A stretch of 64,000 bases of DNA from the IMG/VR virus record IMGVR_UViG_3300015607_002611, positions 9,143 through 73,142 of that record, one strand, 5' to 3'. Positions within the stretch are counted from its first letter, which is position 1. Each line of letters opens with the position of its first letter. Under the pieces are notes generated by a model that was given only the letters and a program-made list of their open reading frames with translations, had not been told where the DNA came from and did no database searches. Below, in pieces: positions 39,743-56,781 of the stretch. This stretch comes from a virus. The translations under genes were made by a program, and so were the position numbers.

Positions 39743-39764
39743 AGCCTTAGAGAAATCTAAGGCT
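39743..39764 (+). promoter_or_regulatory. Stem-loop (AGCCTTAGA-gaaa-TCTAAGGCT) abutting promoter -33 element; no U-run
   Basis: 9-bp perfect stem. The 3' arm runs into CTTTGGGG. Confidence 0.4.
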
Positions 39765-39794
39765 TTGGGGTGTCGATAAGTTAAGTTATATTTA
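39764..39794 (+). promoter_or_regulatory. Bacteroidetes-type promoter CTTTGGGG-N-TTATATTTA
   Basis: TTTG at 39764-67, 19 nt, then TATATTTA at 39787-94. The ATG is at 39813. Confidence 0.55.
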
Positions 39795-39812
39795 TACTAT
39801 AACAATCACAAC

Positions 39813-41024
39813 ATGGAAAAGACAATAGAATTTAAAGGTGACTTTTACGCAAAATCACCAGAAGAATTTAAACAAATTAAAATCGCAGCTTTAAAGGCTG
39901 GATATAAAGGAATAGAAATGTCGAATGGCCCTCGTGAGAAATCATCTGGTCGTGGTCAATTCTTAACACTTGAAGCACCTCGATATGAGCGTAAAGGTAA
40001 ATGCGGATATTGTGGTTCTTTAATCGATATTTGTGGTATTTATGCGCATGGTAGAAAATGCGAATGCTGTGGTAAAACTATTTATCAAAAATACGAAAAG
40101 GGAGGTTTAATCACATTCTTCTTTCGTGATTTTGAAGATGGTAATAAAGTCGATATATTCGGTGATATCACGTTGCGCATTCATAGTTTTGAAACTGATA
40201 AAAATATTTTAAGATTTGAAATGAATATCCCACGTGATGGCAAATATGGGAAACAAAAACGTTCAAGAGTTTTAGAAATTCTTAAAAACAACCGTTCAGC
40301 ATATAACATTATTGAAATTGGTAAAAAGAAAGTTTACACATTCTATTACCCATTTAATGGTATGATGAATGATTTAACTCGAATTAATACAAGTGAAGTT
40401 AGAAATCGCAAAGGCGGTCATCCAAGTGGACCTCGTAATTGTTCAGTAGTTCAAATTTTGGATGGTAAAGAATATTCTGAACATGCATCATTCAGTGGTA
40501 TATTTGCTGAATTACCAATGCCTACTTCATTCCATATTTACCGCGATTGGAAAATTGAAAAAACAATGTCGACAATGTGTAGTCGTTCAGGTATTAATTT
40601 ACGTCCTGAATATTATTCTGGTCGTTCAGCTGGTGATATCACTTCTGACCATTTATTTAAACTTTATAATCAAATAAAAGATAATAAGGGTGAAAATGCA
40701 AGTAAAGCCTTCTTAAAATTAATTGAAGGTACTTATGATTTGTCTGCTACTAATTTAACAAGAAAGTTCATAAAACTTGAAAGAAATAATTATGAATGGT
40801 CTGATTCAGAAAATACTGAAAAAGAAACTAATGTTGAATTAGATGGTAGTTCAGTAAATGCATTTGCAACTATCGTAAGTGTAATGAGTGGCCCATATGG
40901 ACGCGCATTTACTAATCGTGTTTTCGGTGATGAACTTGGCGATATGATTGATGGAATGAAGAGAAAACATAAAGATTATCAATCTGCAATGATTAAAAGT
41001 GAATTCTTATCAAAATTAAAATAA
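39813..41024 (+). CDS. Hypothetical protein with zinc-ribbon
   Basis: 'CGYCGSLIDICG...CECCGK'. Confidence 0.35.
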   Translation: MEKTIEFKGDFYAKSPEEFKQIKIAALKAGYKGIEMSNGPREKSSGRGQFLTLEAPRYERKGKCGYCGSLIDICGIYAHGRKCECCGKTIYQKYEKGGLITFFFRDFEDGNKVDIFGDITLRIHSFETDKNILRFEMNIPRDGKYGKQKRSRVLEILKNNRSAYNIIEIGKKKVYTFYYPFNGMMNDLTRINTSEVRNRKGGHPSGPRNCSVVQILDGKEYSEHASFSGIFAELPMPTSFHIYRDWKIEKTMSTMCSRSGINLRPEYYSGRSAGDITSDHLFKLYNQIKDNKGENASKAFLKLIEGTYDLSATNLTRKFIKLERNNYEWSDSENTEKETNVELDGSSVNAFATIVSVMSGPYGRAFTNRVFGDELGDMIDGMKRKHKDYQSAMIKSEFLSKLK

Positions 41025-41025
41025 A

Positions 41026-41340
41026 ATGAAAAAGATTGCAATATTATTTTTATCAACTATTTTGTTTTCATGTAATGTTACTGAGACACGTAGAGTTGAT
41101 ACGCAAATAACTATAGAAGTTACATATACAAATGGTGAAATTGATACGTTAACTCCAATATGGAATTCAGACGTTGGTGATTTGCCTCAATGTTATTTAG
41201 AAAGTAATAGAGGTGATGCTTGTGTATGTATTACAAGTCATGGTGAATTAGGCTTACAAAGACTAGCTTGTGGTGTAAGAAAAATAAAAGAGCTTTCAAG
41301 AAAAGAAGTTAATTCAAATGAATCAACAAGTAATAAATAA
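41026..41340 (+). CDS. Putative lipoprotein
   Basis: Signal peptide with lipobox 'ILFLSTILFSC'. Confidence 0.5.
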   Translation: MKKIAILFLSTILFSCNVTETRRVDTQITIEVTYTNGEIDTLTPIWNSDVGDLPQCYLESNRGDACVCITSHGELGLQRLACGVRKIKELSRKEVNSNESTSNK

Positions 41341-42178
41341 AGAAAAATTAGAGTATTTAAAGACTTATATAACTACTTTCGCTAGGGCTTATATGTTGGC
41401 GACTGGTAAAAAACTTACCACTGTTGACCAAATATTAGAACTTATCGAAAGTGGTGAGTTTACATTTGAAGATATGTTTGATGTTTACTTAGGTGAGGCT
41501 TTTAAATATGGTGATTTATCTGAAGAAGCTGAAAAGTTTTGGGATTATAATATGGAAGCATTTAATGTTGAAAATTATTTTCCAGATGATAGTAAACAAG
41601 TTGGAAGTGGTTCTTGGATAAAAATAAGAACTGAGAATGGTTACGAAGTTCATTTTGCTAAAGTATCAAATCGTAAAAGAAGATTTGCTGAAGAGTATAC
41701 TTCATATCAAAAACAAATAACTTCTTTATATAAAGGCTTAATTAAAGATTACGAAGATTATACTAAAAAAATCGATGAAATACTTACTCCTGCAAAAGAA
41801 GCTAAGAAAAAATATTTAGATGCAAAATTAAGAGAAAGTGAGATACGTTTAGCTATAAACTTAAAGCCTTATGAGGTTAGAATAAATAGAACTAAAAGTA
41901 AAGTTGAGTATCTTTTACCATATCAATATGAAATTGTGAATGATATTCAAGAACATGTTGATGCTTATATTGCAAATACACCAGGTGTTAACACTAAAAC
42001 TTTATTTACATCACTTAATAAAGATGCAATATTCTATTTACAAAGTAGAGGTATAAGTAAAAAAGTAGCTGAAATGATGTCAGCATTGCAACAAGTTTAT
42101 TTTACTGTAGATATGGTAGTTGCCACGAATGCATATAATGAACATATAAAAAGAAAAGTTAAAATAGTAAGCGCATAA
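41318..42178 (+). CDS. Hypothetical protein
   Basis: ORF only. Confidence 0.3.
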   Translation: MNQQVINKEKLEYLKTYITTFARAYMLATGKKLTTVDQILELIESGEFTFEDMFDVYLGEAFKYGDLSEEAEKFWDYNMEAFNVENYFPDDSKQVGSGSWIKIRTENGYEVHFAKVSNRKRRFAEEYTSYQKQITSLYKGLIKDYEDYTKKIDEILTPAKEAKKKYLDAKLRESEIRLAINLKPYEVRINRTKSKVEYLLPYQYEIVNDIQEHVDAYIANTPGVNTKTLFTSLNKDAIFYLQSRGISKKVAEMMSALQQVYFTVDMVVATNAYNEHIKRKVKIVSA

Positions 42179-42180
42179 TT

Positions 42181-43035: not shown

Positions 43036-43052
43036 CCTCGCAAATATAATAC

Positions 43053-43083
43053 TTTGGGGGCTCGACAATAATTATTATATTTA
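43053..43083 (+). promoter_or_regulatory. Bacteroidetes-type promoter CTTTGGGGG-N14-TTATATTTACT
   Basis: TTTG at 43053-56, 19 nt, then TATATTTA at 43076-83. The ATG is at 43098. Confidence 0.55.
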
Positions 43084-43097: not shown

Positions 43098-43562
43098 ATG
43101 AAAAAAGTATTAGTAATAAGTAAACGCGAGTTTGATAAAGTAATGCGCGATAATAAAATCACTGCAGAAAATATCGAAAATAGAAGTAAAGTCGCATTTA
43201 TTTCTATTAATGATACTTTCGGCACAACTGAAACACCTTTCTTTAAAGAAGACAAGGAAAATTTGCGCATCTTGTTTTTTGATGATGTTACTGAAGATAC
43301 CAAGTTAAATTGGGGCACAGCAAAAGCATTTAACAAAGAACAAGGTAAAATTGTTTTAGAATTCTTAAACAAAATCAAGGATCGCGATACATTAATAGTA
43401 CACTGTCACGCTGGAATTTCTAGGAGTGGTGCAGTAGGTCAATTCGCTGCTGATTACTTTGGTTTAGATTACAAAGAATTCAGAAACTTAAACCCACACA
43501 TTCACCCTAATTCTACCGTTACAAGAATATTAAGAGAATTAGCTCGTGAACAAGAAGACTAA
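43098..43562 (+). CDS. Cys-based (CX5R) phosphatase, dual-specificity/polynucleotide-phosphatase-like
   Basis: P-loop 'VHCHAGISRSG'. Confidence 0.75.
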   Translation: MKKVLVISKREFDKVMRDNKITAENIENRSKVAFISINDTFGTTETPFFKEDKENLRILFFDDVTEDTKLNWGTAKAFNKEQGKIVLEFLNKIKDRDTLIVHCHAGISRSGAVGQFAADYFGLDYKEFRNLNPHIHPNSTVTRILRELAREQED

Positions 43563-44577
43563 CATATTATTATCAAGGGACGAATTCAGAGAAGGTGTTT
43601 TTGAGAGAGATGGGCATAAATGCGTTGTTTGTAAAGAGCAAGGCAAAGATGCCCATCACATTCTCGAAAGAAGATTATTCAATGACGGTGGTTATTATTT
43701 AGATAACGGAGCAACGTTATGTGAAAAACATCATATTGAAGCTGAACAGACAACATTAAGTTGTGATACTATCAGAGAGCTTTGTGGTATTGAAAACTTA
43801 ATCATACCTGAACATTTTTACTCTGACTATGATTATGATAAATGGGGTAATATTATTCAGCCTAATGGATTGAGATTAAAGGGTGAATTGTTTTATGATG
43901 AATCAGTTCAGAAGATATTAAATCAAGGTAATGTTTTGAATTTATTTCAAAAATATGTAAAATATCCAAGAACTTATCATTTACCATGGAGCAATTTACT
44001 TAAAGACGATAGAAAATTAAGTGACGATTCATTCTTTCATGGAAAGAGAGTTATAATGACACTTAAAATGGATGGTGAAAATACAACAATGTATAATGAT
44101 TATATTCATGCACGTTCTTTAGAATCTAAGTCACATGAAACTAGAAATTGGGTCAAAGGCCTTTGGTCTAGAATCTCATATCTTTTAGATGAGAATATGA
44201 GATTATGTGGAGAGAATTTATATGCTGTTCATTCAATTGAATATAATGATTTACCTTCATATTTCATGCCATTCTCATTATGGATGGACAATAAGTGTTT
44301 AAGTTGGGATGAAAGTGTAGAGTACTTTAAAATTTTAGGTTTAGAACATGTTCCAGTTATCTATGATGGAATTTATGATAAAGATAAAATCATTGAAACA
44401 TTTTCTAAATATGAAAAAGAACACGAAGGCTTCGTAATTAGAATTGCAGATGAATTCAATTATGGTGAATTTAGAAGATGTGTCGCTAAATTCGTTAGAC
44501 CTGAGTTTAGACAAATAGTTAATAATTCACATGGTCACTGGATATCAAAGAAAGTGACTGTAAATAAATTAAAATAA
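43546..44577 (+). CDS. HNH/zinc-finger domain fused to ATP-dependent nucleotidyltransferase ligase (RNA-ligase-like)
   Basis: N-terminal 'CVVCKEQGKDAHHILERRLF...NGATLCEKHH' is HNH-like. Ligase motifs are I 'LKMDGEN', III 'LCGENLYAVHS', IV 'HEGFVIRIA' and V 'AKFVRPEF'. Confidence 0.6.
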   Translation: MNKKTNILLSRDEFREGVFERDGHKCVVCKEQGKDAHHILERRLFNDGGYYLDNGATLCEKHHIEAEQTTLSCDTIRELCGIENLIIPEHFYSDYDYDKWGNIIQPNGLRLKGELFYDESVQKILNQGNVLNLFQKYVKYPRTYHLPWSNLLKDDRKLSDDSFFHGKRVIMTLKMDGENTTMYNDYIHARSLESKSHETRNWVKGLWSRISYLLDENMRLCGENLYAVHSIEYNDLPSYFMPFSLWMDNKCLSWDESVEYFKILGLEHVPVIYDGIYDKDKIIETFSKYEKEHEGFVIRIADEFNYGEFRRCVAKFVRPEFRQIVNNSHGHWISKKVTVNKLK

Positions 44578-44578
44578 A

Positions 44579-44974
44579 ATGAAAACTTCATTTGATATGG
44601 ATAATACACTTGGCGAATCATGGGTGCAATTAATTGCTAAAGCCATGATTGCAGGTGGTCATGAAGTTTGGATTATAACTGCGAGATGTGATGATAGATT
44701 ACATAATCCGAATATTGCAAAAATTAATTCATGTAATAGAGACCTTTTCGCAATTGCTGAAAGGTTAGGAATTCCTGATGAAAGAATTGTAATGACTGAA
44801 GGTTCATTTAAACATAAAACTATTAAAAGGCTTGGAATTGAATTACATTTCGATGATGTACCAGAAGAAGTTGAGTTAATTAATCGAAATACAGACTGTA
44901 AAGCTCTTTTAATTTGGGACGAATTTTGTTCAGCGTCAATAAAACATGAACAATTTGCAAAAGGAATATTTTAA
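44579..44974 (+). CDS. Small HAD-like phosphatase
   Basis: Motif I 'SFDMDNTLG', 'WIITAR' and 'HFDD'. Confidence 0.45.
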   Translation: MKTSFDMDNTLGESWVQLIAKAMIAGGHEVWIITARCDDRLHNPNIAKINSCNRDLFAIAERLGIPDERIVMTEGSFKHKTIKRLGIELHFDDVPEEVELINRNTDCKALLIWDEFCSASIKHEQFAKGIF

Positions 44975-45003
44975 GAGAGTATATAATAAAATAATTTATT
45001 AAA

Positions 45004-45252
45004 ATGTGGCCTTTTAGTAAACCCACTATAGAAGTTGAATGTCGTCTTCCTGATATGTTAAGAGAAGACCAGGACTATTTATGTCAGGGTATACTTGAAG
45101 ACCTAGATGACGAATTTGGATTTTGTTATAATATACGACTTAAGTCGAGTGATATAAACAAAGTCACAATTGTAGATGGCAGAAAAAGCAAACAATTAGA
45201 AGAACGAGCGATTCGGATAGAAATTTATCGAAGGATAAACAACCTTAAGTAA
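45004..45252 (+). CDS. Small hypothetical protein
   Basis: ORF only. Confidence 0.25.
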   Translation: MWPFSKPTIEVECRLPDMLREDQDYLCQGILEDLDDEFGFCYNIRLKSSDINKVTIVDGRKSKQLEERAIRIEIYRRINNLK

Positions 45253-45256
45253 TCCG

Positions 45257-45279
45257 AAGCCTCGATATAATCGAGGCTT
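45257..45279 (+). promoter_or_regulatory. Stem-loop (AAGCCTCGAT-ata-ATCGAGGCTT) abutting promoter -33; no U-run
   Basis: 10-bp perfect stem whose 3' arm supplies the CTTTGGGGG element. Confidence 0.4.
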
Positions 45280-45308
45280 TGGGGGCTTAAGAAAAATAAT
45301 TATATTTA
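45278..45308 (+). promoter_or_regulatory. Bacteroidetes-type promoter
   Basis: TTTG at 45278-81, 19 nt, then TATATTTA at 45301-08. This string is identical to the 43053 promoter over 'TTATATTTACTTAAA'. Confidence 0.55.
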
Positions 45309-45325
45309 CTTAAAATCATAAAACC

Positions 45326-45445
45326 ATGGCAACACTAAGAAAAATAGGGAAGTTCTTAGCGAACTTATTTAAAATTAAAGGAACACCAAGAAATATGGAC
45401 GGTAGCACTGACCTGTATTTCCCTGAAGACCACTTAGGAATTTAA
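45326..45445 (+). CDS. Small ORF (39 aa) directly downstream of promoter
   Basis: ATG 17 nt after the -7 element, the same spacing as other promoter-gene pairs. Sequence 'MATLRKIGKFLANLFKIKGTPRNMDGSTDLYFPEDHLGI'. Confidence 0.35.
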   Translation: MATLRKIGKFLANLFKIKGTPRNMDGSTDLYFPEDHLGI

Positions 45446-45456
45446 AAAATTAAAAA

Positions 45457-46623
45457 ATGGAACTAGCATTAATAAATGAAATAAAAAGATTTGGACTAGA
45501 AAAGACTGCAGAAACTTACAAACTTTCTGTGAAGGATTATGGTCATAAAGTACTTATTAAGTACGACCAAATTGAATCTGACATGTCTGAACTTCCTGTA
45601 CAAGACGCAAGAGGTATAATCCTTGAGAAAGGTACTTGGAAAGTTATGTCTTTAGCTTTTAGAAAATTTTTCAACTCAGCCGAAACACAAGCCGCTAAGA
45701 TAGATTGGGATTCAGCTTTGATTTTAGAAAAGTTAGATGGAACATTAATTCAATTATACTGGGACTGGGTTTTAAAAGAATGGTGCGTAGGTACTACAGG
45801 TACTGCCGATGGTTCAGGTGAAGTGAATAACAAATTTGGGACTACATTTGCAGACTTGTTCTGGTCTACTATTGGAAAATATCCTGGTAAATTCCACGGT
45901 GTTGATAAAATGTCAAAAAATGAACGTAACGAACGTTTAAATGAATTTTTAAACGATAACTTTTGTCATGTTTTTGAATTAACTACACCTTATAATATTG
46001 TGGTTGCACCCCATGCTACATCTAACGCTACTTTGTTGGCTGCAAGAAATGTTATTACTCTTGAAGAACTTTCATTTGATAATCTAGCAGGGACTGCAAT
46101 TGAGTTAGATGTTCCTTTAGTAAAAGTGTTTGATATAAATGCTTCGAACACAGGTCATGTAATAGCTACATTGGAAGGTATGCCTTTCTCTGAAGAGGGA
46201 TATGTAGTAGTTGATAATAAATTTAATCGTATCAAGATTAAGAACCCTACATATGTTCAAGTACATCACTTGAAGTCAAAGACTTCTGAGCATGCTATAA
46301 TGGAAATTGTTAAGACTAATGAAGTTGAAGAATTTGCGGCGACATTTCCTGAAAGACGTGAAGAAATCTTTAAGCTTAAAGATGGGTTTGATAAATTAAA
46401 AGAATCATTAAAGGAAACTTGGAATGAATTAGAACCATTTAAGCCTCGTATTATCACTAAAGAAGAGAATAAGAGATTTGCAATGGCAGTTTTTGATATT
46501 ACAGGAAAGAAAGGTTGTAAAAATCATACAGGTTTATTTTTCTCTTTAAAAGATGGTAAAGTAGGAAGTGTAGAAGAATACCTTAAAGATTACGACAATA
46601 AAAAATTATATACAGAACTATAA
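45457..46623 (+). CDS. ATP-dependent RNA ligase (Rnl1-like nucleotidyltransferase)
   Basis: Motif I 'LILEKLDGTLIQ' (KxDG), motif IV 'EEGYVVVDN' and motif V 'RIKIKNP'. 388 aa. Confidence 0.65.
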   Translation: MELALINEIKRFGLEKTAETYKLSVKDYGHKVLIKYDQIESDMSELPVQDARGIILEKGTWKVMSLAFRKFFNSAETQAAKIDWDSALILEKLDGTLIQLYWDWVLKEWCVGTTGTADGSGEVNNKFGTTFADLFWSTIGKYPGKFHGVDKMSKNERNERLNEFLNDNFCHVFELTTPYNIVVAPHATSNATLLAARNVITLEELSFDNLAGTAIELDVPLVKVFDINASNTGHVIATLEGMPFSEEGYVVVDNKFNRIKIKNPTYVQVHHLKSKTSEHAIMEIVKTNEVEEFAATFPERREEIFKLKDGFDKLKESLKETWNELEPFKPRIITKEENKRFAMAVFDITGKKGCKNHTGLFFSLKDGKVGSVEEYLKDYDNKKLYTEL

Positions 46624-46952
46624 TGGATAAGATTAAACAGACATTTTTAAATAAAGGTTTAGTGACTGGTAGAGTATTAACTACCAGTCTTAAATCTTTT
46701 TATTGGGAGAAATTCCCCAATCATGAAGTACACTTCAATGCCAATCTCTTAACAGAGAGTAAAGGCAAAATCTGGTGGGGAGATATAGACTTAAATCTAG
46801 ATGGACCCAAGATTTTTGAAATAGCACGAGAAATAAATGAGGATATCTACTTAGTAAAACAAACTGATGGTCACTTTGAAAATGAAAAACCATCAATTGA
46901 GGAATTAAAAAGATGTCTATTTGGTCAACTAAAATATTTAACTAATGTTTAG
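46623..46952 (+). CDS. Hypothetical protein
   Basis: ORF only. Confidence 0.3.
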   Translation: MDKIKQTFLNKGLVTGRVLTTSLKSFYWEKFPNHEVHFNANLLTESKGKIWWGDIDLNLDGPKIFEIAREINEDIYLVKQTDGHFENEKPSIEELKRCLFGQLKYLTNV

Positions 46953-47190
46953 ATTTTTAAAAAAGAAAAGAAGATACTTTATGGTATTTTATACAGGTAA
47001 TGCACCTGTTGGTACAACTGGTCAATCAATAGGATATGCTTCTTTATATAAAGAAGGTTTTTTAAACCAGGAAAGTTTAATAAAAGATATAGAAAAAATT
47101 TCAGGAATTAATAGTCCTGTATTGACTAATTTTATTGAAATTACCGAAAGTGATTATAATGAATGGTTAAGAAAAGAAAAAACTAAATAA
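46945..47190 (+). CDS. Small hypothetical protein
   Basis: ORF only. Confidence 0.25.
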   Translation: MFRFLKKKRRYFMVFYTGNAPVGTTGQSIGYASLYKEGFLNQESLIKDIEKISGINSPVLTNFIEITESDYNEWLRKEKTK

Positions 47191-47191
47191 A

Positions 47192-48248: not shown

Positions 48249-48527
48249 ATGATTATAATTGTATCAAAATCAAATCTTAAAATTCCAGTAAAGGATAAAG
48301 AAATTAAAGATTGTGATTGGGTTGATTTTAATATTGAGCCTAAAACATATTCTTTAGCAACATCTGTATTTGCACTAGATATAAAAAATAATATTGTAAA
48401 AGTTCTCAAAGACAGATACGATTTATTTGGCAAATATGAAAGATATTCAGATTTTAATAGATTAATCGAAAGTGTATATCATATGGAGAATACACATTTA
48501 GGTAAAGGAACACGTAAACTTAGATAA
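48249..48527 (+). CDS. Hypothetical protein
   Basis: ORF only. Confidence 0.25.
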   Translation: MIIIVSKSNLKIPVKDKEIKDCDWVDFNIEPKTYSLATSVFALDIKNNIVKVLKDRYDLFGKYERYSDFNRLIESVYHMENTHLGKGTRKLR

Positions 48528-48528
48528 C

Positions 48529-48735
48529 ATGGCAATAAATTTTTGGGTTCATAAACATGATTTGGACCATTTAAACAAGCTTTTGAAAAAGCCATTACCA
48601 GATATAAATGACGATGATTATATTCTTGAAGTTTATATGCAAAGTAAGAACGGATGGCTCCAAAACAATTACTTCCAGGTGGGTATAAGCTATGAAGACT
48701 TCATGAGAATTGAAGGATATTTAGATTTCGTATAA
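48529..48735 (+). CDS. Small hypothetical protein
   Basis: ORF only. Confidence 0.25.
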   Translation: MAINFWVHKHDLDHLNKLLKKPLPDINDDDYILEVYMQSKNGWLQNNYFQVGISYEDFMRIEGYLDFV

Positions 48736-49127
48736 TGGCTGAAACCGATTTTCTATATATGAATAAGAAAACCCTAGGTTATATCTTAGATTGGTGCGTA
48801 AATGAATACGGTCATTCTAAACATGTTACACATGGTTTACTTAAATATAAAATAAATTATCGGTGCATACCTAAAGGTTGGTTTAAATCAGCTGAAGTTA
48901 TGATTGAAGTTAATCCGAAAAATCATACGAGTTTAATTGATTTTGTACATACTGCAATACATGAGTATACACATTATATGCAAGACCAAGACTTATATGA
49001 TAAGTACTCTGAAGAACATGATGATGATACTAATCCATTGGAAATTGAAGCTGATATGGTAGCAATGAGAGATAAGAAAAGATGTTTAAGAAAAATTAAA
49101 AAGTTAATAGAAGAAGATGAAAGATAA
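48735..49127 (+). CDS. Putative HExxH zinc metallopeptidase-like protein
   Basis: 'VHTAIHEYTHYMQD'. Confidence 0.35.
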   Translation: MAETDFLYMNKKTLGYILDWCVNEYGHSKHVTHGLLKYKINYRCIPKGWFKSAEVMIEVNPKNHTSLIDFVHTAIHEYTHYMQDQDLYDKYSEEHDDDTNPLEIEADMVAMRDKKRCLRKIKKLIEEDER

Positions 49128-49896
49128 TTTGGGCGACCGTATAAAAAACAACTACGAAGATAGAACGAGATTTTCTTTACCTCGTAGAACATATACAATT
49201 ATTAGATTAGATGGTAAAGCATTCCACACTTATACAAGAGGATTGGAAAAACCATTTGATATGGATTTAATCAATGATATGGCGGAAGCTACTAAATATC
49301 TTTGTGAAAATATCCAAGGTTGTATTTTAGGTTATACACAGAGTGATGAGATTTCACTTTTATTAACTGACTTTGAGAAGCCAGGGACAAGTGCATGGTT
49401 TGATGGTAATATTCAAAAGATGGCAAGTATTTCAGCTTCAATGGTTACAGCTAAGTTTAATGATATTAGAAGAGGGCGTGAGGCTCACAAGAATATTGCA
49501 TTATTTGATAGTAGAGTATTTACAATATCTGATAGAATTGAAGTAATGAACTATTTTATTTGGAGACAGAAAGATGCTACACGTAACTCAATAAGTATGG
49601 CAGCACATGCATTATGTGGCCACAAGGCTTGTATGGGTAAATCAAGCTCTGATAAGCAAGAAATGATTTTCCAAAAAGGTGTTAATTGGAATGATTATCC
49701 AACATCTTGTAAAAATGGAACAATGATTACAAAAAAGACTGGTGTTATGAAGAATCTTAATCCTAAACCAGGGCAACCTGAGATGTATGAAAGAAGCTTC
49801 TGGCAAATTGAAGGTGCTAAAAACTTTAGAACATTTTTGCCTAAATTTTTACCTACAATGAAAGTTGAATTAGAAGACAATGATGTTTTATCTTAA
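49117..49896 (+). CDS. Thg1-like protein (tRNA-His guanylyltransferase family, 3'-5' nucleotidyltransferase)
   Basis: 'IIRLDGKAFHTYT' (Thg1 VRLDGRNFH), 'GYTQSDEISLLL' (AYGQSDEYSFVF) and 'MNYFIWRQKDATRNSISMAAHAL' ([23 protein letters not shown]). Confidence 0.8.
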   Translation: MKDNLGDRIKNNYEDRTRFSLPRRTYTIIRLDGKAFHTYTRGLEKPFDMDLINDMAEATKYLCENIQGCILGYTQSDEISLLLTDFEKPGTSAWFDGNIQKMASISASMVTAKFNDIRRGREAHKNIALFDSRVFTISDRIEVMNYFIWRQKDATRNSISMAAHALCGHKACMGKSSSDKQEMIFQKGVNWNDYPTSCKNGTMITKKTGVMKNLNPKPGQPEMYERSFWQIEGAKNFRTFLPKFLPTMKVELEDNDVLS

Positions 49897-49905
49897 ATAA
49901 ATAAT

Positions 49906-50661
49906 ATGTATACTAAAAATGAACTAGCAAATTTTATAGCATTTGACTTAGAAACAGCAAGTGGTTATAAAGACCTTGATACTCTTAATGAAGAAAACCC
50001 TCGTTTAGGTGAATTATGGAATAAACGTTGTGAATATCTTCGTACAAAACATGATGATAATAAGCCTTTAACAAATGCTGAGATATATGAACAGAAAACA
50101 GGTTTACAAGCGGAATATGGCAAGATTGTATGTATTAGCATCGCATATGTTAGATATAATAAGGATAATCAGCCCGTAATTAAATCTAAAAGCTTTAAAA
50201 GCCATGATGAAAAAGAATTATTAGAAGCTTTCTTTAATTTTTTAACATCAGCTAAAGACAAATTACCAAATGCAGTATTCTGTGGCCATAATATTAAAAG
50301 ATTTGATATTCCATTTTTATGTAAGCGTGCATTAATTAATGGTTTAAAAGTACCAGCTCAATTTAATACTATTGGAAAGAAACCATGGGAATTAAGTATT
50401 GTTGATACTGCTGAACTTTGGTCGTTTGGTGCATGGCAAGAATCTTTCACTTCTTTAGACACTTTAACAGCAGTATTAAATATTCCATCACCTAAAAGTG
50501 ATATTGATGGAAGTAAAGTATCAGAAGTGTTCTGGCAAGAAGGTGATTTAGATAGAATCGCTAAGTATTGTGAACAAGATGTTGCAGCTACTATTAATGT
50601 ACTTATAGCATTATCTGGATTTGAAATAGCAGAGCCTAGCAACATTACATCTGTTGAATAA
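49906..50661 (+). CDS. DnaQ-like 3'-5' exonuclease (DEDDy)
   Basis: Exo I 'IAFDLETAS', Exo II 'CGHNIKRFDIPFL' and Exo III 'YCEQDVAAT'. Confidence 0.75.
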   Translation: MYTKNELANFIAFDLETASGYKDLDTLNEENPRLGELWNKRCEYLRTKHDDNKPLTNAEIYEQKTGLQAEYGKIVCISIAYVRYNKDNQPVIKSKSFKSHDEKELLEAFFNFLTSAKDKLPNAVFCGHNIKRFDIPFLCKRALINGLKVPAQFNTIGKKPWELSIVDTAELWSFGAWQESFTSLDTLTAVLNIPSPKSDIDGSKVSEVFWQEGDLDRIAKYCEQDVAATINVLIALSGFEIAEPSNITSVE

Positions 50662-51011
50662 TGGAAATACATTACGCTGAAACATTTACAGCTACGATTT
50701 ACTGTGGCTTTAAACCAGGATATGATGGAATGGAAGACTATGAATCAATGAGTCTTGCTGAAGTTGTATGCCAGGAGTATTGTAATAAATATGGCGCTGG
50801 TTTTACAATTGAACCAACTAAATTCATTTATACTAATGGTAGAGAAAATGGAGTTAAAATAGGTTTAATTAATTATCCTCGATTTCCTAAAAGACCTATT
50901 GAAATTAAGAATATCGCAATTCAGATTGCAGCTGAACTAAAGGAAGTATTTAAACAACATCGAGTTTCAATTGTATGTAGCGATGAAACTATAATGATTG
51001 GTGAAAAATAA
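50661..51011 (+). CDS. Hypothetical protein
   Basis: ORF only. Confidence 0.3.
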   Translation: MEIHYAETFTATIYCGFKPGYDGMEDYESMSLAEVVCQEYCNKYGAGFTIEPTKFIYTNGRENGVKIGLINYPRFPKRPIEIKNIAIQIAAELKEVFKQHRVSIVCSDETIMIGEK

Positions 51012-51012
51012 C

Positions 51013-51043
51013 TTTGGGAAATCGATATAAATTAGTACTTTAA
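51013..51043 (+). promoter_or_regulatory. Degenerate promoter-like motif (CTTTGGG...TACTTTAA)
   Basis: TTTG at 51013-16, 19 nt, then TAcTTTAA. The ATG is 2 nt downstream. Weaker match. Confidence 0.3.
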
Positions 51044-51045
51044 TA

Positions 51046-51228
51046 ATGAATAAAGAAAAATACCTCAAGAAGTTAAGGGATGACATTGATAAAATGCCAA
51101 TAGAACAATTGAGAGAATATTGCTGGCGATTAGATAGGAATGCCCAAACCTATTTTGAAAACTGGCAATTGGCGGAAGAAAAAATAATAGAATTAGAAAT
51201 TAAATTATCCTTGAAAAATGACGATTGA
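51046..51228 (+). CDS. Small hypothetical protein
   Basis: ORF only. Confidence 0.25.
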   Translation: MNKEKYLKKLRDDIDKMPIEQLREYCWRLDRNAQTYFENWQLAEEKIIELEIKLSLKNDD

Positions 51229-52390
51229 AGATTTAAAAAGCAAGAATTTAATTATATTTGAATGTATTACCGGTTCAACCGCCTACGGTACGAATTTACC
51301 TACTTCAGATATAGACATTAAGGGTGTATTCATCCAACCTCTAGAAGATATTCTAGGAATGGGATATGTTGAACAAGTAAATGACGCGAAAAACGATATT
51401 ACTTATTACGAAATTCGTAGGTTCATTGAACTCATTTCAAGTAACAATCCAAACTTACTTGAAATGTTAAATGTGCCTGAAGATTGCATTAAATATAAAC
51501 ATCCAGTATTTGATGAAATTATAAACAATTCTGATAAGTTTATTACAAAAATTTGTCGCGATTCATTTGCAGGTTATGCAGTATCACAAATTAAAAAGGC
51601 AAGAGGTTTAAACAAGAAAATTGTGAACCCTGTTGCTAAGGAAAGAAAATCTCCACTTGACTTCTGTAAAGTTATTAATGGTTATAACAGTAAGGCAATG
51701 GATAAATTTTTAGCAGAAGGTGGATACGAACAGAGATTTTGTGGAGTATCTGCTGTGCCAAATGCACGTGATACTTATGCTTTATTTTACGACTTAGATG
51801 CACATATGTGCTTTTCAGAAAATGTACCTTTAGAAGATAGAGAAGCTAGGAAAGCTCATCGAAAAGAAAATGGTTTACCTATGGGATTTGGATTCAAAGG
51901 TATTTTATTAGAAATTGAAGGTGGCGATGGTTTCGCATCAAATGAAATTAGAATGTCTTCTATACCTAAGGGAATTGAACCAATTGCAACATTTAGTTAT
52001 AACAAAGATGGTTATACTAAATATTGTAAAGATTATAGAGAATACTGGCATTGGGTTGAAAATAGAAACGATGCACGTTATAATGATAATGCTAACCATG
52101 GTAAAGGATATGATGGGAAAAATCTTTCACATTGTCATAGGTTATTAGATATGGCTATAGAAATAGCTGAAGGTAAAGGTATTTTAGTTAAAAGACCTAA
52201 TAGAGATGAACTTTTATCAATTAGAAGAGGTGAAATGGATTACGATGAATTAGTTATAAGTGCAGAATCTAAAATTAAATTAATAGATGAACTTTACGAA
52301 AAATCTAATTTACCTAATAAAGTCGATATTTCTATTTCTAATGATATTTTAATTAATATACGTAAACAATTCTATGGGTTACAAGGGTAA
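51218..52390 (+). CDS. Pol-beta superfamily nucleotidyltransferase (RNA-repair-associated type)
   Basis: 'IIFECITGSTAYGTNLPTSDIDIKGVF' fits the GSx(9-13)DxD minimal-NTase motif. Confidence 0.55.
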   Translation: MTIEDLKSKNLIIFECITGSTAYGTNLPTSDIDIKGVFIQPLEDILGMGYVEQVNDAKNDITYYEIRRFIELISSNNPNLLEMLNVPEDCIKYKHPVFDEIINNSDKFITKICRDSFAGYAVSQIKKARGLNKKIVNPVAKERKSPLDFCKVINGYNSKAMDKFLAEGGYEQRFCGVSAVPNARDTYALFYDLDAHMCFSENVPLEDREARKAHRKENGLPMGFGFKGILLEIEGGDGFASNEIRMSSIPKGIEPIATFSYNKDGYTKYCKDYREYWHWVENRNDARYNDNANHGKGYDGKNLSHCHRLLDMAIEIAEGKGILVKRPNRDELLSIRRGEMDYDELVISAESKIKLIDELYEKSNLPNKVDISISNDILINIRKQFYGLQG

Positions 52391-52395
52391 GAACA

Positions 52396-52407
52396 GATAT
52401 ATATAAT
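52396..52407 (+). promoter_or_regulatory. 'GATATATATAAT' motif upstream of HE gene
   Basis: Recurrent motif. Confidence 0.3.
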
Positions 52408-52420
52408 TTAAAAATAAATT

Positions 52421-53125
52421 ATGTACATTTATAAAATTACGTGTTTGATTAATAATAAAATTTATATTGGAAAAACTGAAAAGAATATAGATGAAAGATT
52501 AATTAATCATTTTAATAAGGCAAAAAGTGGAAAATCTAAAATGTTAATTTCTAAAGCTATATTAAAGTATGGTTTTGAAAATTTTAAAATAGAAGTAATT
52601 GAAAAATGTTTAGATATTTCATCATTAAATCAAAGAGAAATTTATTGGATTAAAGAATTTAATTCTATTAATAAATTAATAGGATATAATTGTACATTAG
52701 GTGGTACTGGTGGAGATACTTATACAAATAATCCTAATTATGATTTAATATGTGAAAAACATAAAATTATCATGTTAAATGAAAGTTCTGAAATGAAAGA
52801 AAAAAGAACTAAAAAATTAAAAGGATTAATTAGAAAAAAATCAACATGTAAAGCAATTTCTAAAGCTAGAAAAGGAATGATGTTTACAGAAACACATAAA
52901 AATAATATAAGTATTAAAACTAAAGAAGCTATGCGAAGTTTAAATATTTATAATATAAAACCTGTAGATTGTTATGATTTAGATAATAATTATGTTAAAA
53001 CATTTAAAAGTTTAGCTGAAGCTTCAAGGGAATTAAATATTGGTAAAATGTCAATTTTTAAAAATTGCAATGGTAAAAGAAATAAAGCCGGTAATTTTAT
53101 TTTTAAATATTCAAATGACATTTAA
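52421..53125 (+). CDS. GIY-YIG homing endonuclease
   Basis: 'MYIYKITCLINNKIYIGKTEKNIDERLINH', NUMOD-like 'AISKARKGMMFTETHKNNIS' and a C-terminal HTH-like region. Confidence 0.85.
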   Translation: MYIYKITCLINNKIYIGKTEKNIDERLINHFNKAKSGKSKMLISKAILKYGFENFKIEVIEKCLDISSLNQREIYWIKEFNSINKLIGYNCTLGGTGGDTYTNNPNYDLICEKHKIIMLNESSEMKEKRTKKLKGLIRKKSTCKAISKARKGMMFTETHKNNISIKTKEAMRSLNIYNIKPVDCYDLDNNYVKTFKSLAEASRELNIGKMSIFKNCNGKRNKAGNFIFKYSNDI

Positions 53126-53312
53126 ACATGGCATAACAGGTAATTATTATGTAACCAGTTTGGAGAAATCTGAACTGGTTATTGTTTGTAGAGCTATTGG
53201 TAAATCTGAAGCTTCAATTAAATGGCACGAAAAGTATAATTGTTGGGTTTTTAGAGTTAAAGAAAAAGCAATGAAGAAAAAACTTAAAGAATACTTTGGG
53301 AGTATATCATAA
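53115..53312 (+). CDS. Small hypothetical protein (66 aa from internal ATG of track ORF 53040..53312)
   Basis: The ATG at 53115 overlaps the HE stop by 11 nt. The upstream part of the track ORF lies inside the HE gene in another frame. Confidence 0.3.
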   Translation: MTFKHGITGNYYVTSLEKSELVIVCRAIGKSEASIKWHEKYNCWVFRVKEKAMKKKLKEYFGSIS

Positions 53313-53339
53313 TTTGTTAGATTTATCAAAAGAATAAAT

Positions 53340-53651
53340 ATGAAAAAATTAATAGCATTATTAATGCTTATATTCGTATTAAATACGACATACGCGCAAA
53401 AACGACAAGGGTACAGTGAACGAGATAAATCGACAAGTGTTGGATTAGTAGTAGGTGGTGTTGCATTTACAACGGCAGCATTCTTAGAAGGTCCACAAAA
53501 CTATGGAACTTGGAAACATAATCCTAATAGTACGAGCCAATATAATATGACTTATGTTACACCTTCATTTTGGCAACAAACGCCTAGAAATATAATGTTT
53601 GTAGTAGGTATAACAGTTACAATAACAGGATTAATAACATTAAAAAAATGA
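53340..53651 (+). CDS. Secreted/membrane protein
   Basis: Signal peptide 'MKKLIALLMLIFVLNTTYA' and C-terminal TM 'IMFVVGITVTITGLITL'. Confidence 0.45.
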   Translation: MKKLIALLMLIFVLNTTYAQKRQGYSERDKSTSVGLVVGGVAFTTAAFLEGPQNYGTWKHNPNSTSQYNMTYVTPSFWQQTPRNIMFVVGITVTITGLITLKK

Positions 53652-54397
53652 AAAATAATAAAATGAACTTTGCTGTCATAGGGGACGTGCACGGAAATTG
53701 GAATTCCATGTATAGACTTATTGAACATAAAAATATTAAAAATGCCTTATTAATACAATTAGGTGACTTTGGTGTGGGTTTTATAAGTAAACATCAAGAT
53801 AGAAAAAATCTCGAATTTTTAAACGAAAAGCTTGCTAAAAGAAATATTATCATGTATGCAATACGTGGTAATCATGATGACCCTTCTATGTTTAAGGGTG
53901 ATTATGTATTTAGTAATTTAAAACTTGTCGATGACTATACAGTTATTGAAGCTCCTAATGGGGATAAAATAGCAATGTTTGGTGGAGCTTTGTCAATTGA
54001 TAGAAAACCACGTATTGCTGAAATGACTGAGTATTCTAAATATAATCTTGATAGAGAGACTTATTGGTATGATGAGAATTTTGTATTGAATGAAGAGTTG
54101 GCTAAAAAGATAACAGGATGTAAATATGTAATTACACATACATCTCCAGATTTTTGCTGGCCTGATAATAAAAATGGATTTGGACCTTTAGTCGAGCATT
54201 TTATTATGTTAGGTGATAAAAAATTAAAAGAAGAATTACCACATGAACGTGCACAATTAACTAAACTTTATAATATACTTAAAGAAAATAATCCTATTGA
54301 AAAATGGTTTTATGGTCATTTTCACAGAACTGAATTAACAGTGCATAATGGAATTGAGTTTCATTTATTAGATATTAACGAAATAAAAGAAGTATAA
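53648..54397 (+). CDS. Calcineurin-like metallophosphatase (Ser/Thr- or polynucleotide-phosphatase-like)
   Basis: 'FAVIGDVHGNW' (GDxHG), 'LGDFGVGF' and 'RGNHDDP' (GNHD/E). Confidence 0.75.
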   Translation: MKNNKMNFAVIGDVHGNWNSMYRLIEHKNIKNALLIQLGDFGVGFISKHQDRKNLEFLNEKLAKRNIIMYAIRGNHDDPSMFKGDYVFSNLKLVDDYTVIEAPNGDKIAMFGGALSIDRKPRIAEMTEYSKYNLDRETYWYDENFVLNEELAKKITGCKYVITHTSPDFCWPDNKNGFGPLVEHFIMLGDKKLKEELPHERAQLTKLYNILKENNPIEKWFYGHFHRTELTVHNGIEFHLLDINEIKEV

Positions 54398-54398
54398 A

Positions 54399-54524
54399 AT
54401 GATAAGAAATTTTTTAGAAAGCCTTTGGGATAATTTATTTAGACCTGTTTTAACATCAACATTTTTCTGGGCAGCTACTGTTGCTGCAGGATTAACTTAT
54501 TTAATAACTCATTCTAATGGATAA
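54399..54524 (+). CDS. Small hydrophobic ORF (41 aa; below track cutoff)
   Basis: The ATG follows the upstream stop by 1 nt. The ORF ends overlapping the next ATG (ATGGATAA). Hydrophobic 'FFWAATVAAGLTYLI'. Confidence 0.35.
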   Translation: MIRNFLESLWDNLFRPVLTSTFFWAATVAAGLTYLITHSNG

Positions 54525-54846
54525 AAATATAGAAAGAATTATCTGTGCTGCAAATCATTATGATGATGGTGAAGAACATGTACATATGCCTCGTAATATT
54601 AAAACAGGATTTGTAATATGTGGCCGAAGACACCATAATTGTATTTCAATATTTGCATTAATGGTTGGATTCCCTTATGATGAAAAAGGGATAGCTTTAA
54701 TGAATACTGAAGAGCAGGGTTTTTTAACAAGTAAAGATAGATTTGTAAATAGAACTGAAGCTTTAGAAATAGCAAGAAAGGCTAATCAAATCTTAGACGA
54801 AAAAGAAGTTAGAGGCGATAAATTATACAGTGAAGATTTATATTAA
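54517..54846 (+). CDS. Hypothetical protein
   Basis: ORF only. Confidence 0.3.
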   Translation: MDKNIERIICAANHYDDGEEHVHMPRNIKTGFVICGRRHHNCISIFALMVGFPYDEKGIALMNTEEQGFLTSKDRFVNRTEALEIARKANQILDEKEVRGDKLYSEDLY

Positions 54847-55025
54847 TGAAACGAATAAATCGTAAAAAATTAATAATTGAATTGGAATTCCTAAGACAAG
54901 GATTTGCGGATGCAATAATGGAAGCTAAACGTAATAAAGATGAAGTTGCTGAAATAACTTTTAAAGCACATCATTGGAATGCTAATCGATTAATTGTAGA
55001 ATTAGGTGGTGAAAGTGTATTATGA
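54846..55025 (+). CDS. Small ORF (59 aa; below track cutoff)
   Basis: TAATG overlap upstream and ATGA overlap downstream. It fills a 175-bp apparent gap. Confidence 0.4.
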   Translation: MKRINRKKLIIELEFLRQGFADAIMEAKRNKDEVAEITFKAHHWNANRLIVELGGESVL

Positions 55026-55495
55026 TAACAAAAGTAATATTTTTAGATATTGATGGGGTATTAAATGTATATCCACAAGGCCATGATGAGTATGGTGCAA
55101 TTTGGCATGACCACTTTGTAAACAATCTAAAAAGAATTATTGATGCAACTGATGCTAAAATTGTTATTAGTACATGGAGAATGTCAGGTCTTTTAGTTAT
55201 GAAAGAAATGTGGGCTAAACGTGGTTTACCTGGTCGTGTAGTTGATATTACACCTAACCACATGGTAAGAACTGGAAGTACTTTACAAAGAGGTAAAGAA
55301 ATTGACGAATATTTATCATATAATCCTGAAATTACACATTACGTAATTTTAGATGATGATGAAGATATGGAACCCCATCAAATGGATAATTTTGTCAAAA
55401 CATCAGGTAACGTAGACCACCCTGATTGTGTTGATGTGGGTTATGGATTAACAGATATATGTACTGATAGGGTTATAGCTATTTTAAATAAATGA
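55022..55495 (+). CDS. NT5C-like HAD 5'-(deoxy)nucleotidase
   Basis: Motif I 'VIFLDIDGVLNV' (DxDGV as in NT5C 'VDMDGVL'), 'VISTWR' and 'ILDDDED'. Confidence 0.55.
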   Translation: MITKVIFLDIDGVLNVYPQGHDEYGAIWHDHFVNNLKRIIDATDAKIVISTWRMSGLLVMKEMWAKRGLPGRVVDITPNHMVRTGSTLQRGKEIDEYLSYNPEITHYVILDDDEDMEPHQMDNFVKTSGNVDHPDCVDVGYGLTDICTDRVIAILNK

Positions 55496-55758
55496 AAATT
55501 CCTAGAAAAAAGAAAAAGCAAATACCAGAAGGTAGTTATTGTTATACAATGGTTTCTGGCATGATTTACCCATCTGATGGTAGTTTGCCTTATTATAAAA
55601 TAAAAAAGTGCCCATATTTTGAATGGGTGAAAGGTGAACCCCAAGACCTTTCACCTAATTCAAATATGTTTGGTAGATGTCGCCTTTTAAAAATCGAGGA
55701 TGACATGTGCTTAAATGACCAATGTAAGGTTTGCGACATTAAATTAGGTCGCCCATAA
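55492..55758 (+). CDS. Small Cys-rich protein
   Basis: 'CPYFEW...C...CKVC'. Confidence 0.3.
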   Translation: MKIPRKKKKQIPEGSYCYTMVSGMIYPSDGSLPYYKIKKCPYFEWVKGEPQDLSPNSNMFGRCRLLKIEDDMCLNDQCKVCDIKLGRP

Positions 55759-55761
55759 TAC

Positions 55762-55792
55762 TTTGACGATTCAAATCTTTTGGTTATATTTA
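55762..55792 (+). promoter_or_regulatory. Bacteroidetes-type promoter
   Basis: TTTG at 55762-65, 19 nt, then TATATTTA at 55785-92. The ATG is at 55797. Confidence 0.5.
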
Positions 55793-55796
55793 ACCA

Positions 55797-56318
55797 ATGA
55801 TAAACGTTAAAGGTATTATACACTTCGATCCCCTCCCATTAACTACGAAGCATAAAAAGCAAGCGAAATGGAAGAATCATGCTAATGTCCAATTAAATTG
55901 CGAATTAGATAAGTATTATGCTTGGTTTGTTAAAACTCGATATAACGTAAAATTAAATCCTCCTCAGCGCGGACCTCATGTCAGCTTTATTGCAGATATA
56001 GTTTCAAATCCAGAACTTTATAAAAAAGTAATGGAGAAGTGGAATAAAAAAGAAATTGAATTTACGTATGATACTAATGTTCGCACTAATGGTGAAGATT
56101 GGTGGTTAAGAGTTTATTCTAAAGATTTATTAGATATTCGAGAAGAAGCTGGTTTACCACGTAATCCATTTTTTAATTTACATTTAACAATTGGATACGC
56201 TGCACCTCGATTAGATAAAGATGGTAATGAAATGGGTGGTTCTAATCTTGAACATTCAAGATATATCCATGAAATAATTAAGCGTTATGAATTTGATACC
56301 CCAAGGAAATTAACATAG
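55797..56318 (+). CDS. 2H-phosphoesterase family protein (LigT / 2',3'-cyclic phosphodiesterase-like)
   Basis: Two HxS/Tx motifs: 'GPHVSFIA' and 'NLHLTIGY'. Confidence 0.55.
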   Translation: MINVKGIIHFDPLPLTTKHKKQAKWKNHANVQLNCELDKYYAWFVKTRYNVKLNPPQRGPHVSFIADIVSNPELYKKVMEKWNKKEIEFTYDTNVRTNGEDWWLRVYSKDLLDIREEAGLPRNPFFNLHLTIGYAAPRLDKDGNEMGGSNLEHSRYIHEIIKRYEFDTPRKLT

Positions 56319-56319
56319 T

Positions 56320-56350
56320 CTTTGGGGTTCAAATCAAATTTTATAAATTT
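56320..56350 (+). promoter_or_regulatory. Bacteroidetes-type promoter
   Basis: TTTG at 56320-23, 19 nt, then TAAATTTA at 56343-50. The ATG is at 56369. Confidence 0.5.
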
Positions 56351-56368
56351 ACATAATAAACTAATAAC

Positions 56369-56749
56369 ATGATAAACTTTGAACAATTTAAAAATTACGT
56401 CGATGCTTTGTCAATAGATGAGCAATCCAAAAAGGATTTGATTGTTCTGGTGACTCCTTGTTTTGACTTTAGAGACTTTCTAAAAAAGAAGTATGGTTTA
56501 GAAGATGACCAAATCGAAAACTTAATTCAGTTGAAGATTGCAGCAGGTCGTGATTATATTTATAAAGACTTAGAACTTTTAGATGTTGCCGACTATACTC
56601 ATGCTCTTATTGCTAGAATGTCGAAAGTTGTTACTGAATTCGCTAAAGAAGAAAAATATGAACACGCAGAATCTCTTGAAATTGCGCTAAAGAAGGTTAT
56701 GTTAATCGGTGTACAAAATCACACACAAATTCGAGAAGCCCTGAATTAA
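56369..56749 (+). CDS. Hypothetical protein
   Basis: ORF only. Confidence 0.3.
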   Translation: MINFEQFKNYVDALSIDEQSKKDLIVLVTPCFDFRDFLKKKYGLEDDQIENLIQLKIAAGRDYIYKDLELLDVADYTHALIARMSKVVTEFAKEEKYEHAESLEIALKKVMLIGVQNHTQIREALN

Positions 56750-56750
56750 C

Positions 56751-56781
56751 TTTGGGGGATATCGAAATCTTGTTATATTTA
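56751..56781 (+). promoter_or_regulatory. Bacteroidetes-type promoter
   Basis: TTTG at 56751-54, 19 nt, then TATATTTA at 56774-81. The ATG is at 56801. Confidence 0.55.

Follow-up and report, generated by a model that had tools for sequence, protein, structure and literature searches.

In a 64,000-nucleotide stretch of the virus record IMGVR_UViG_3300015607_002611 (positions 9,143 to 73,142 of that record, analyzed whole and hereafter called the window), a recurrent two-box element, which we denote class A, stands immediately upstream of genes and is concentrated in a region of RNA-repair functions. The element consists of a -33 box, C-TTTGGG, and, after a spacer of 19 nt counted from TTTG, a -7 box, TAnnTTTA. 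From the anatomy of the sites and their footprint in related phages, we infer that these elements are bipartite promoters, and they appear to represent a variant of the -33/-7 promoter of Bacteroidota rather than a plain match to it. Most likely, they are read by the host core polymerase with the host primary sigma factor, a reading to which we assign a probability of roughly 0.6. A promoter family of this kind had been proposed in an earlier note made from the letters of the window alone, and the strand of the sites, their fixed spacing, their variable distance to the ATG, and their conservation at orthologous positions all fit that proposal.

Two boxes at a fixed distance

The exact pattern TTTGGGGG-N12-16-TTATATTTA occurs three times in the window, against 0.00 expected, and for the more permissive TTTG-N19-TAnnTTTA there are 10 occurrences where 1.9 +/- 1.4 would be expected. 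When spacers of 15-23 nt were compared, enrichment was confined to 19 nt on the plus strand, with nine hits, the other lengths yielding 0-2. The 7-mers CTTTGGG and ATATATA are the most over-represented ones in the intergenic DNA of the window. CTTTGGG is found 11 times on the plus strand and once on the minus strand, with 3.5 occurrences expected for both strands summed. A position weight matrix (PWM) trained on nine sites, that at 58162 being left out of the training, produced a bimodal distribution of scores in which 10 full sites stand clearly apart, with no comparable match on the minus strand. The TTTG elements of these sites start at 30493, 39764, 43053, 45278, 51013, 53295, 55762, 56321, 56751, and 58162, and the PWM additionally picks a partial site at 3577 that has the -7 box only. 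The earlier note had recommended a motif search with positions compared to start codons. At the scale of the window, nine of the 11 plus-strand copies of CTTTGGG fall in intergenic DNA, which makes up 5.4% of the total, and every site lies on the coding strand, with an ATG 2-29 nt past its end.

Together with 12 sites in relatives, the 10 full sites of the window form a set of 22 clade sites with the consensus C-TTTGGG-N16-TAtATTTA. The TTTG element is present in 9 of the 10 window sites (58162 has TTCG) and in all 12 sites of the relatives, and the -7 element, T-12 A-11 n n T-8 T-7 T-6, in 20 of the 22 (the exceptions are 51013, with TACTTTAA, and position 3451 of the relative L241, with TAATATAA); the spacer from TTTG to TA is exactly 19 nt in all of them. 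The spacing of the boxes is invariant while the distance to the ATG varies, which is the mark of a transcription signal and argues against one for translation. An alternative parsing, in which a stop codon plus the motif (TAAC+TTTG) serves as a canonical -7 box, fits only 2 of the 10 sites and was rejected.

The syntenic relatives, found through a search with ArgH and encoding ArgH proteins 60-78% identical to that of the window, supply the footprint. At the site that follows ArgH, both boxes and the 19-nt spacing are kept in L236, L233, L237, and L240, and the spacer sequence has diverged; the site before the 403-amino acid (aa) gene, at 39763, has orthologous counterparts in L233, L237/L242, and L243. 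At two orthologous intergenic positions, after ArgH and before a 401-aa gene, CTTTGGG and TAnnTTTA stay in register, and the spacer and the two free positions of the -7 box vary. Retention of the boxes and their spacing, with divergence of the intervening sequence, is the phylogenetic footprint of a bipartite promoter. Searches of IMG/VR for relatives of the 403-aa protein and of the sigma factor discussed below found none.

All of the sites are on the plus strand. The site at 30492..30523 (CTTTGGGTG-N-TAGTTTTA; PWM score 34.6) begins 3 nt past the stop codon of ArgH and precedes an NfeD-like gene with its ATG at 30553. The site at 39763..39794 (PWM 36.3) lies before the 403-aa gene (ATG 39813). 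The best match, at 43052..43083 (PWM 43.2), precedes a dual-specificity-phosphatase-like gene (Pfam DSPc; ATG 43098), and the site at 45277..45308 (PWM 40.3) is followed by a 39-aa open reading frame (ORF; ATG 45326) and then by an Rnl1-type RNA ligase gene at 45457 (RNA_lig_T4_1); these two sites are alike over 38 nt at 87% identity, the longest similarity between any sites. The weakest class A site, at 51012..51043 (CTTTGGGAA...TACTTTAA; PWM 25.1), has one mismatch in the -7 box, and its ATG, at 51046, is only 2 nt past the box; the next gene is a match to RlaP. Further downstream lie the site at 53294..53325 (PWM 37.4; ATG 53340); that at 55761..55792 (PWM 30.8), which has a weak -33 extension, CTTTGACG, and the ATG of a 2H phosphoesterase gene, at 55797, 4 nt past the box; that at 56320..56351 (PWM 30.1; ATG 56369), whose CTTTGGGGT forms a stem with a ACCCCAAGG located upstream; that at 56750..56781 (PWM 36.8; ATG 56801); and a variant, CTTCGGG...TTATATTTA, at 58161..58192 (PWM 20.0; ATG 58218), which overlaps the 3' end of a 78-aa ORF. 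The partial site, CTTTTTT...GTTATATTTA at 3576..3607 (PWM 11.5), is situated before an extracytoplasmic function (ECF)-like sigma factor gene, the ATG of which is 4 nt past the box.

The seven elements listed in the earlier note all exist, as does their clustering in the RNA-repair region, and the sites at 53295 and 58162 had been missed. The spacing of 19 nt between TTTG and TAnnTTTA stands, with the qualification that the box at 51013 deviates from TAnnTTTA at one position; the ATG is close downstream, as claimed, but over all sites its distance extends beyond the 2-20 nt given there. Of the two supposedly looser copies, the one before nfeD proved to be a full site and the one before the sigma gene retains nothing but the -7 box.

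Fit to the promoters of Bacteroidota

In Flavobacterium johnsoniae, mapping of transcription start sites defined promoters with T-12 A-11 n n T-8 T-7 T-6 G-5, in which transcription starts 4-5 nt past the box, G at -5 is nearly invariant, G at -10 is virtually absent, and the -33 box is weakly conserved (PMC6847099); full strength of the -33/-7 consensus requires TTTG at -33 (PMC2483708). Class A agrees with the Bacteroidota primary-sigma consensus at 11 of the 12 defined positions, that is, at all but one, and its spacer falls within the known range of about 19-20 nt. The optimal spacer in the ompA promoter, reportedly established by Chen and colleagues in 2007, is 19 bp. Matches to the sigma-70 type are not enriched in the window (96 versus 117 +/- 12 in shuffled sequences), and 192 kb of sequence from the clade contain 25 A-type sites versus only two G-type sites, so that canonical G-type promoters are essentially absent. 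This leaves class A as the sole host-like promoter. The earlier note had assigned the sites to the Bacteroidetes sigma-A layout as opposed to that of Escherichia coli; the geometry and the lack of enrichment for sigma-70 matches agree with this assignment, but the final G of TAnnTTTG does not.

It is this final base, along with several other features, that weighs against reading by the primary sigma factor of the host. The base at -5 is A in all 22 clade sites. The first variable position of the -7 box, -10, is G in three of the 22 (30493, 53295, and that in L236), the others complying with TAHHTTTG in this respect. The extended -33 box, with C before TTTG and GGG after it, is far better conserved than the -33 box of the host promoters, and these extra bases, combined with the rigid spacing, look more like those of promoters dependent on an alternative sigma factor or an activator than those of housekeeping ones. 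Furthermore, a GTTATATTTAC box, with the -33 box missing or variable, precedes the sigma gene in four lineages (the window, L245, L246, and L247), and such conservation of a -7 box ahead of a sigma gene resembles ECF autoregulation. Finally, the ENA record that carries the window is 68.5 kb long, which means that the genome is seen only in part.

The host itself is probably a member of Bacteroidota, to judge from several features of the window and its relatives. The earlier note had arrived at the same host from the promoters and the absence of Shine-Dalgarno sequences, and this absence is real: GGAG, GAGG, or AGGA at -20 to -4 was found in 4 of 105 genes, compared with 6.5 +/- 2.4 at random internal positions. 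Position -3 is A in 70% of the genes. Large proteins (1170-1350 aa) of the relatives (L233 3731-7783; L237 and L239 4012-7524) contain SprB, PKD, and CHU_C (type IX secretion sorting) domains, and these proteins serve as a Bacteroidota marker; no such gene is found at the corresponding position of the window. In addition, the second-best model match of the ECF sigma factor is a Bacteroidetes subfamily (Sig70_bacteroi1, 49 bits). A scan of bacterial genomes for the motif gave matches in all phyla, nearly all of them in coding sequence and 3 of 120 promoter-like, and no host signal. ArgH was considered as a host clue and set aside as uninformative: its cellular homologues are only about 44% identical and belong to candidate-phyla bacteria.

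A second set of large phages, represented by 26 loci that share the RNA ligase (L046-L071), offers an instructive parallel. There, canonical TTTG-N19/20-TAnnTTTG sites number 104 on the coding strand versus three on the other strand, A-type sites are not enriched, and one G-type site is located directly upstream of the ligase gene, so that class A occupies the equivalent genomic role in the clade of the window. The two kinds of sites are alike in density and strand and in their location ahead of RNA-repair genes; in both, leaders are short or lacking and fused terminators occur. The ligase-sharing promoters differ: their base at -5 is G, their spacer is 20 nt in most cases (range 19-21), and their -33 box is ATTTGGT rather than CTTTGGG. 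In these phages, box-to-ATG distances show one peak at exactly 4 nt and another at 12-22 nt, a pattern that fits a start site 4-5 nt past the box, as in the F. johnsoniae data; in 11 of 88 promoters, the ATG is exactly 4 nt past the box, and the mRNAs are predicted to be leaderless. Two sites of the window show the same 4-nt distance, those of the sigma gene and of the gene at 55797, and by analogy with the peak in the ligase-sharing phages, the mRNA of the latter is also predicted to be leaderless. Some of the ligase-sharing promoters carry a terminator hairpin with a T-run between the -33 and -7 boxes (GGGAAAttattTTGGtagTTTCCCTTTTTTTgTTTATATTTG; for example, L046 4759, 11252, and 15563, and L049 16294).

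Elsewhere in IMG/VR, a scan with the A-type motif returned 45 single-hit loci, mostly due to chance, and multiple sites in L030, L007, L008, and L041 only; L008 and L041 come from the sample of a contig identical to the window and are not independent. L030 and L007 contain nine and three A-type sites, respectively, with similar leaders, and no homology to the family of the window was detected in the small loci at hand. In L030, two A-type promoters (85-160 and 3190-3265) precede an identical sequence, GGACCGAGTATACTCCGACCT, in place of a gene start, and this sequence may be a small RNA. The 37 single-hit loci obtained with the G version of the motif were uninformative.

Stem-loops, a second motif, and the layout of transcription units

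The earlier note had described two perfect hairpins of 9-10 bp, without U-runs, directly before two of the sites. The hairpins are real and do include the -33 box CTTTGG in their 3' arms, but their stems are longer: a 13-bp hairpin at 39739..39768 on the plus strand (-19.7 kcal/mol, z -5.4) and a 14-bp hairpin at 45253..45283 on the plus strand (-21.8 kcal/mol, z -5.1). In fold stability, the latter ranks first and the former third among all 44-nt plus-strand segments of the window. A weaker third hairpin, at 56298-56328 (-13.6 kcal/mol, z -2.9), has CTTTGGGGT as its 3' arm, so that a stem-loop overlaps the -33 box in three of the 10 sites and in none of the other seven. Across four distinct orthologues of the 39739 hairpin, 95.8% of the cells are paired and three pairs show compensatory changes, a covariation that, with four sequences only, is supportive but not conclusive.

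A second intergenic motif, TATATAA(A/T), lacks any conserved box upstream and is followed by an ATG at a distance of 3-30 nt. Its sites are at 4403, 5807, 10329, 11139, 14018, 24352, 26616, 27874 (minus strand), 33319, 34752, 36893, 44980, 52400, and 61937, and among plus-strand copies, 10 of 13 for ATATATA and 10 of 31 for TATATAA are intergenic. Genes preceded by this class include four or five for homing endonucleases and several for glycosyltransferases. The hairpins at 39739 and 45253 are located exactly at the junctions between TATATAA-driven and class A units: the first follows the unit 36893-39721, and the second closes a single-gene unit made up of the TATATAA site at 44980 and the gene 45004-45252. 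Boundaries between adjacent class A units are mostly free of hairpins, the exception being the weaker one at 56298-56328. The GIY-YIG unit at 52400-53125 (gene 52421-53125), for its part, ends in its own hairpin, a 14-bp terminator-like match at 53151..53182 on the plus strand (-17.5 kcal/mol), about 110 nt upstream of the site at 53294, and in the relative L241, a full hairpin with a T-run terminator stands directly before a class A site.

The position at unit boundaries and the terminator at the equivalent place in L241 favor a terminator or insulator function for upstream transcripts, and the hairpins at 39739 and 45253 are most likely terminators, insulators, or stabilizers of 3' ends that are fused to the -33 box. 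Against this stands the composition of their 3' flanks: the last paired bases are UUUGG, followed by G, so that there are only three T versus T6-7 at other terminators of the window. Neither hairpin was listed in a scan of the window with a terminator consensus and, with so short a U-run, efficient termination cannot be assumed. Gating of promoter access, which had been suggested for these hairpins, does not hold up, given that such hairpins cannot gate a double-stranded promoter.

The phage encodes a sigma factor of its own, the ECF-type gene at 3612..4409 on the plus strand (Sigma70_r2, 1.7e-13; TIGR02937, 53 bits). Compared with 211-aa homologues, the protein carries about 35 inserted aa that separate the two helices of its region 4.2 helix-turn-helix. 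The order of genes, APH, thymidylate synthase, a 180-aa gene, and sigma, is kept across the family. This sigma factor fits the TATATAA class, with its lack of an upstream box, better than it fits class A, and TATATAA may be its target; the class A sequence, TTTGGG / TAnnTTTA, does not resemble the typical ECF motifs, AAC at -35 and CGT at -10. The small gene that follows the sigma gene (4413-4880) encodes collagen-like G-X-Y repeats, and the repeat DNA is among the strongest local folds of the window.

The window has a G+C content of 29% and carries 103 of its approximately 105 genes on the plus strand. An identical sequence is present in JGI sample 3300015608 and on the ENA contig of 68.5 kb; the source samples are JGI 3300015608 and ENA ERZ27282920. 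A megablast search of INPHARED with the window found no relative, and a protein search of the same database with the RNA ligase retrieved only distant phages of other hosts and no related cultured phage; Rfam and tRNA scans gave no matches. The contigs of the relatives reach 198 kb in the syntenic clade and 350-360 kb among the RNA-ligase-sharing phages, and therefore the window belongs to a phage genome that is large and probably of jumbo size. The RNA-repair set, at 43098-57681, comprises a DSP phosphatase, two Rnl2-type and one Rnl1-type ligases, Thg1, an RNase H-like exonuclease, RlaP, a metallophosphatase, HAD_SAK_2, a 2H phosphoesterase, and a P-loop kinase-like protein; the remaining accessory genes include those for sugar-nucleotide metabolism and glycosyltransferases, ArgG/ArgH, NfeD, flotillin, several homing endonucleases, and the ECF-type sigma factor. 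At 27950-32855, argininosuccinate synthase and lyase (ArgG, ArgH) are followed by the NfeD-like gene and then by a flotillin/Band_7 gene, in an order kept in the relatives. In a contig from another sample (L074 1-2811), the RNA-ligase region, compared at window position 45441, is 99.6% identical to that of the window, and the upstream part is wholly different, with the mosaic junction 16 nt before the ligase ATG and about 130 nt downstream of the motif; the foreign part contains a palindrome of the GGGAAnTTCCC type in every intergenic gap.

Alternative readers and known systems

If class A sites are indeed promoters of the Bacteroidota -33/-7 type, region 4 of the sigma factor would contact the extended -33 box, C-TTTGGG, and region 2 would be placed on the -7 box, TAnnTTTA, which lies exactly 19 nt further downstream. 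Transcription is predicted to start 4-5 nt past the box. The mRNAs of the sigma gene and of the gene at 55797 would then be leaderless, and those of the other genes would have A-rich leaders of about 10-25 nt without Shine-Dalgarno sequences. Within the accessory RNA-repair region, each site would be the start of a short operon, the sites jointly making up a host-polymerase-dependent and presumably early program. At 39763 and 45277, the hairpin fused to the -33 box would stop or stabilize the upstream TATATAA-driven transcript.

The main rival to this scheme invokes the ECF-like sigma factor of the phage which, with the host core polymerase, would read class A as a middle program, the A at -5 and CTTTGGG setting these sites apart from host promoters and the sigma gene being autoregulated through its own -7 box. 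The syntenic conservation of the sigma gene and the persistence of the GTTATATTTAC box in front of it are what one would expect in this case; rigid spacing with high information in both boxes is typical of ECF promoters, and the choice between the A-type and the G-type is all-or-none by phage group. Nevertheless, we regard such a scenario as unlikely because class A matches the host consensus so closely and the ECF motifs so poorly, the -33 box is missing at the very site where autoregulation would occur, the insertion that splits region 4.2 argues against tight reading of a -33 box and suits TATATAA better, and no host-readable promoter would be left in the 192 kb of the clade. Still less probable, in our judgment, is activation of the kind seen at T4 middle promoters (MotA/AsiA), whereby a phage protein would bind CTTTGGGG at -33 and recruit the host holoenzyme to a -7 box that is deliberately sub-consensus. 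The two-part layout is like that of the T4 MotA box with a -10 element, and the conserved bases flanking TTTG, outside the host consensus, as well as the uniformly non-consensus last base of the -7 box, could be accommodated in this way; however, no candidate for the activator came to light, the G-run is dispensable (55761 has CTTTGACG and the sigma site CTTTTTT), and the same boxes are used by L030 and L007.

More generally, the substitution of A for G at -5 and the CTTTGGG box might constitute a private promoter code of the family, read by a phage factor, be it the ECF-like sigma or a MotA-like activator. We consider this broader notion possible but rather doubtful; if true, the phage could keep its own transcription apart from that of the host, and the ECF-like sigma factor, in the first case, would mimic the host layout with a one-base discriminator. 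That the repeats are not primarily promoters at all but rather recombination or regulatory cassettes, RNA-level elements, or operators seems hardly credible. The hairpins at three of the 10 sites, the extended similarity between the sites at 43052 and 45277, and the mosaic strain variant beside the RNA ligase might hint at such a role, but conservation is confined to the two boxes, with the spacers free to diverge, seven sites lack hairpins, Rfam has no match, and the junction in L074 is well downstream of the motif. Reading by the host polymerase with its primary sigma factor thus remains the interpretation that we favor.

Hardly any promoters have been described from Bacteroidota phages, and strong ones are useful for the engineering of Bacteroides and Flavobacterium; class A provides a well-defined, footprinted consensus. 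The version of the -7 box differs, in a mutually exclusive manner, between two groups of large phages with RNA-repair genes in common, which makes it testable whether G at -5 is required by the Bacteroidota primary sigma factor or whether A is read by some hosts or by phage factors. The motif could also serve as a host-phylum marker for uncultured large phages and, taken together with the TATATAA sites and the hairpins fused to -33 boxes, it yields a first map of transcription units for the window.

Among known systems, the PeSL (promoter-early stem-loop) cassettes of the T4-type phages RB49 and phi1 (PMC2839356) are comparable in that dense, near-consensus host-type promoters populate an accessory region rich in ORFans, and stem-loops that adjoin the upstream promoter box, or overlap with it, attenuate transcription from one unit to the next; the stem-loops between the boxes in the ligase-sharing phages extend this likeness. 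Class A differs from PeSL in having stem-loops at only three of the 10 sites and in the conservation of the boxes only, as opposed to about 100 bp in PeSL, a stretch that is a substrate for recombination there; no evidence of recombination at class A sites was found, the sole mosaic junction, that in L074, lying elsewhere. Phage systems with ECF-like sigma factors, such as phiEco32 gp36 (PMC12276001), share with the window a sigma factor of their own and a second, AT-rich, single-box motif before many genes, in this case TATATAA, but class A is unlike an ECF target. The TATATAA class is also similar to late promoters that consist of a -10 element only, an example being that of T4 gp55, TATAAATA.

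The closest counterparts, however, are the sigma-ABfr promoters of Bacteroidota, which are reportedly associated with the work of Bayley in 2000 and Chen in 2007. Class A shares with them TTTG, TA..TTT, the 19-nt spacer, a coding-strand position close before genes that lack Shine-Dalgarno sequences, and the predicted start 4-5 nt past the box, and departs from them in the A at -5, the tolerance of G at -10, and the better-conserved, extended -33 box, C-TTTGGG (Baez 2019, PMC6847099). The family is ordinary in kind, given that host-type promoters are to be expected in phages, and unusual in detail.

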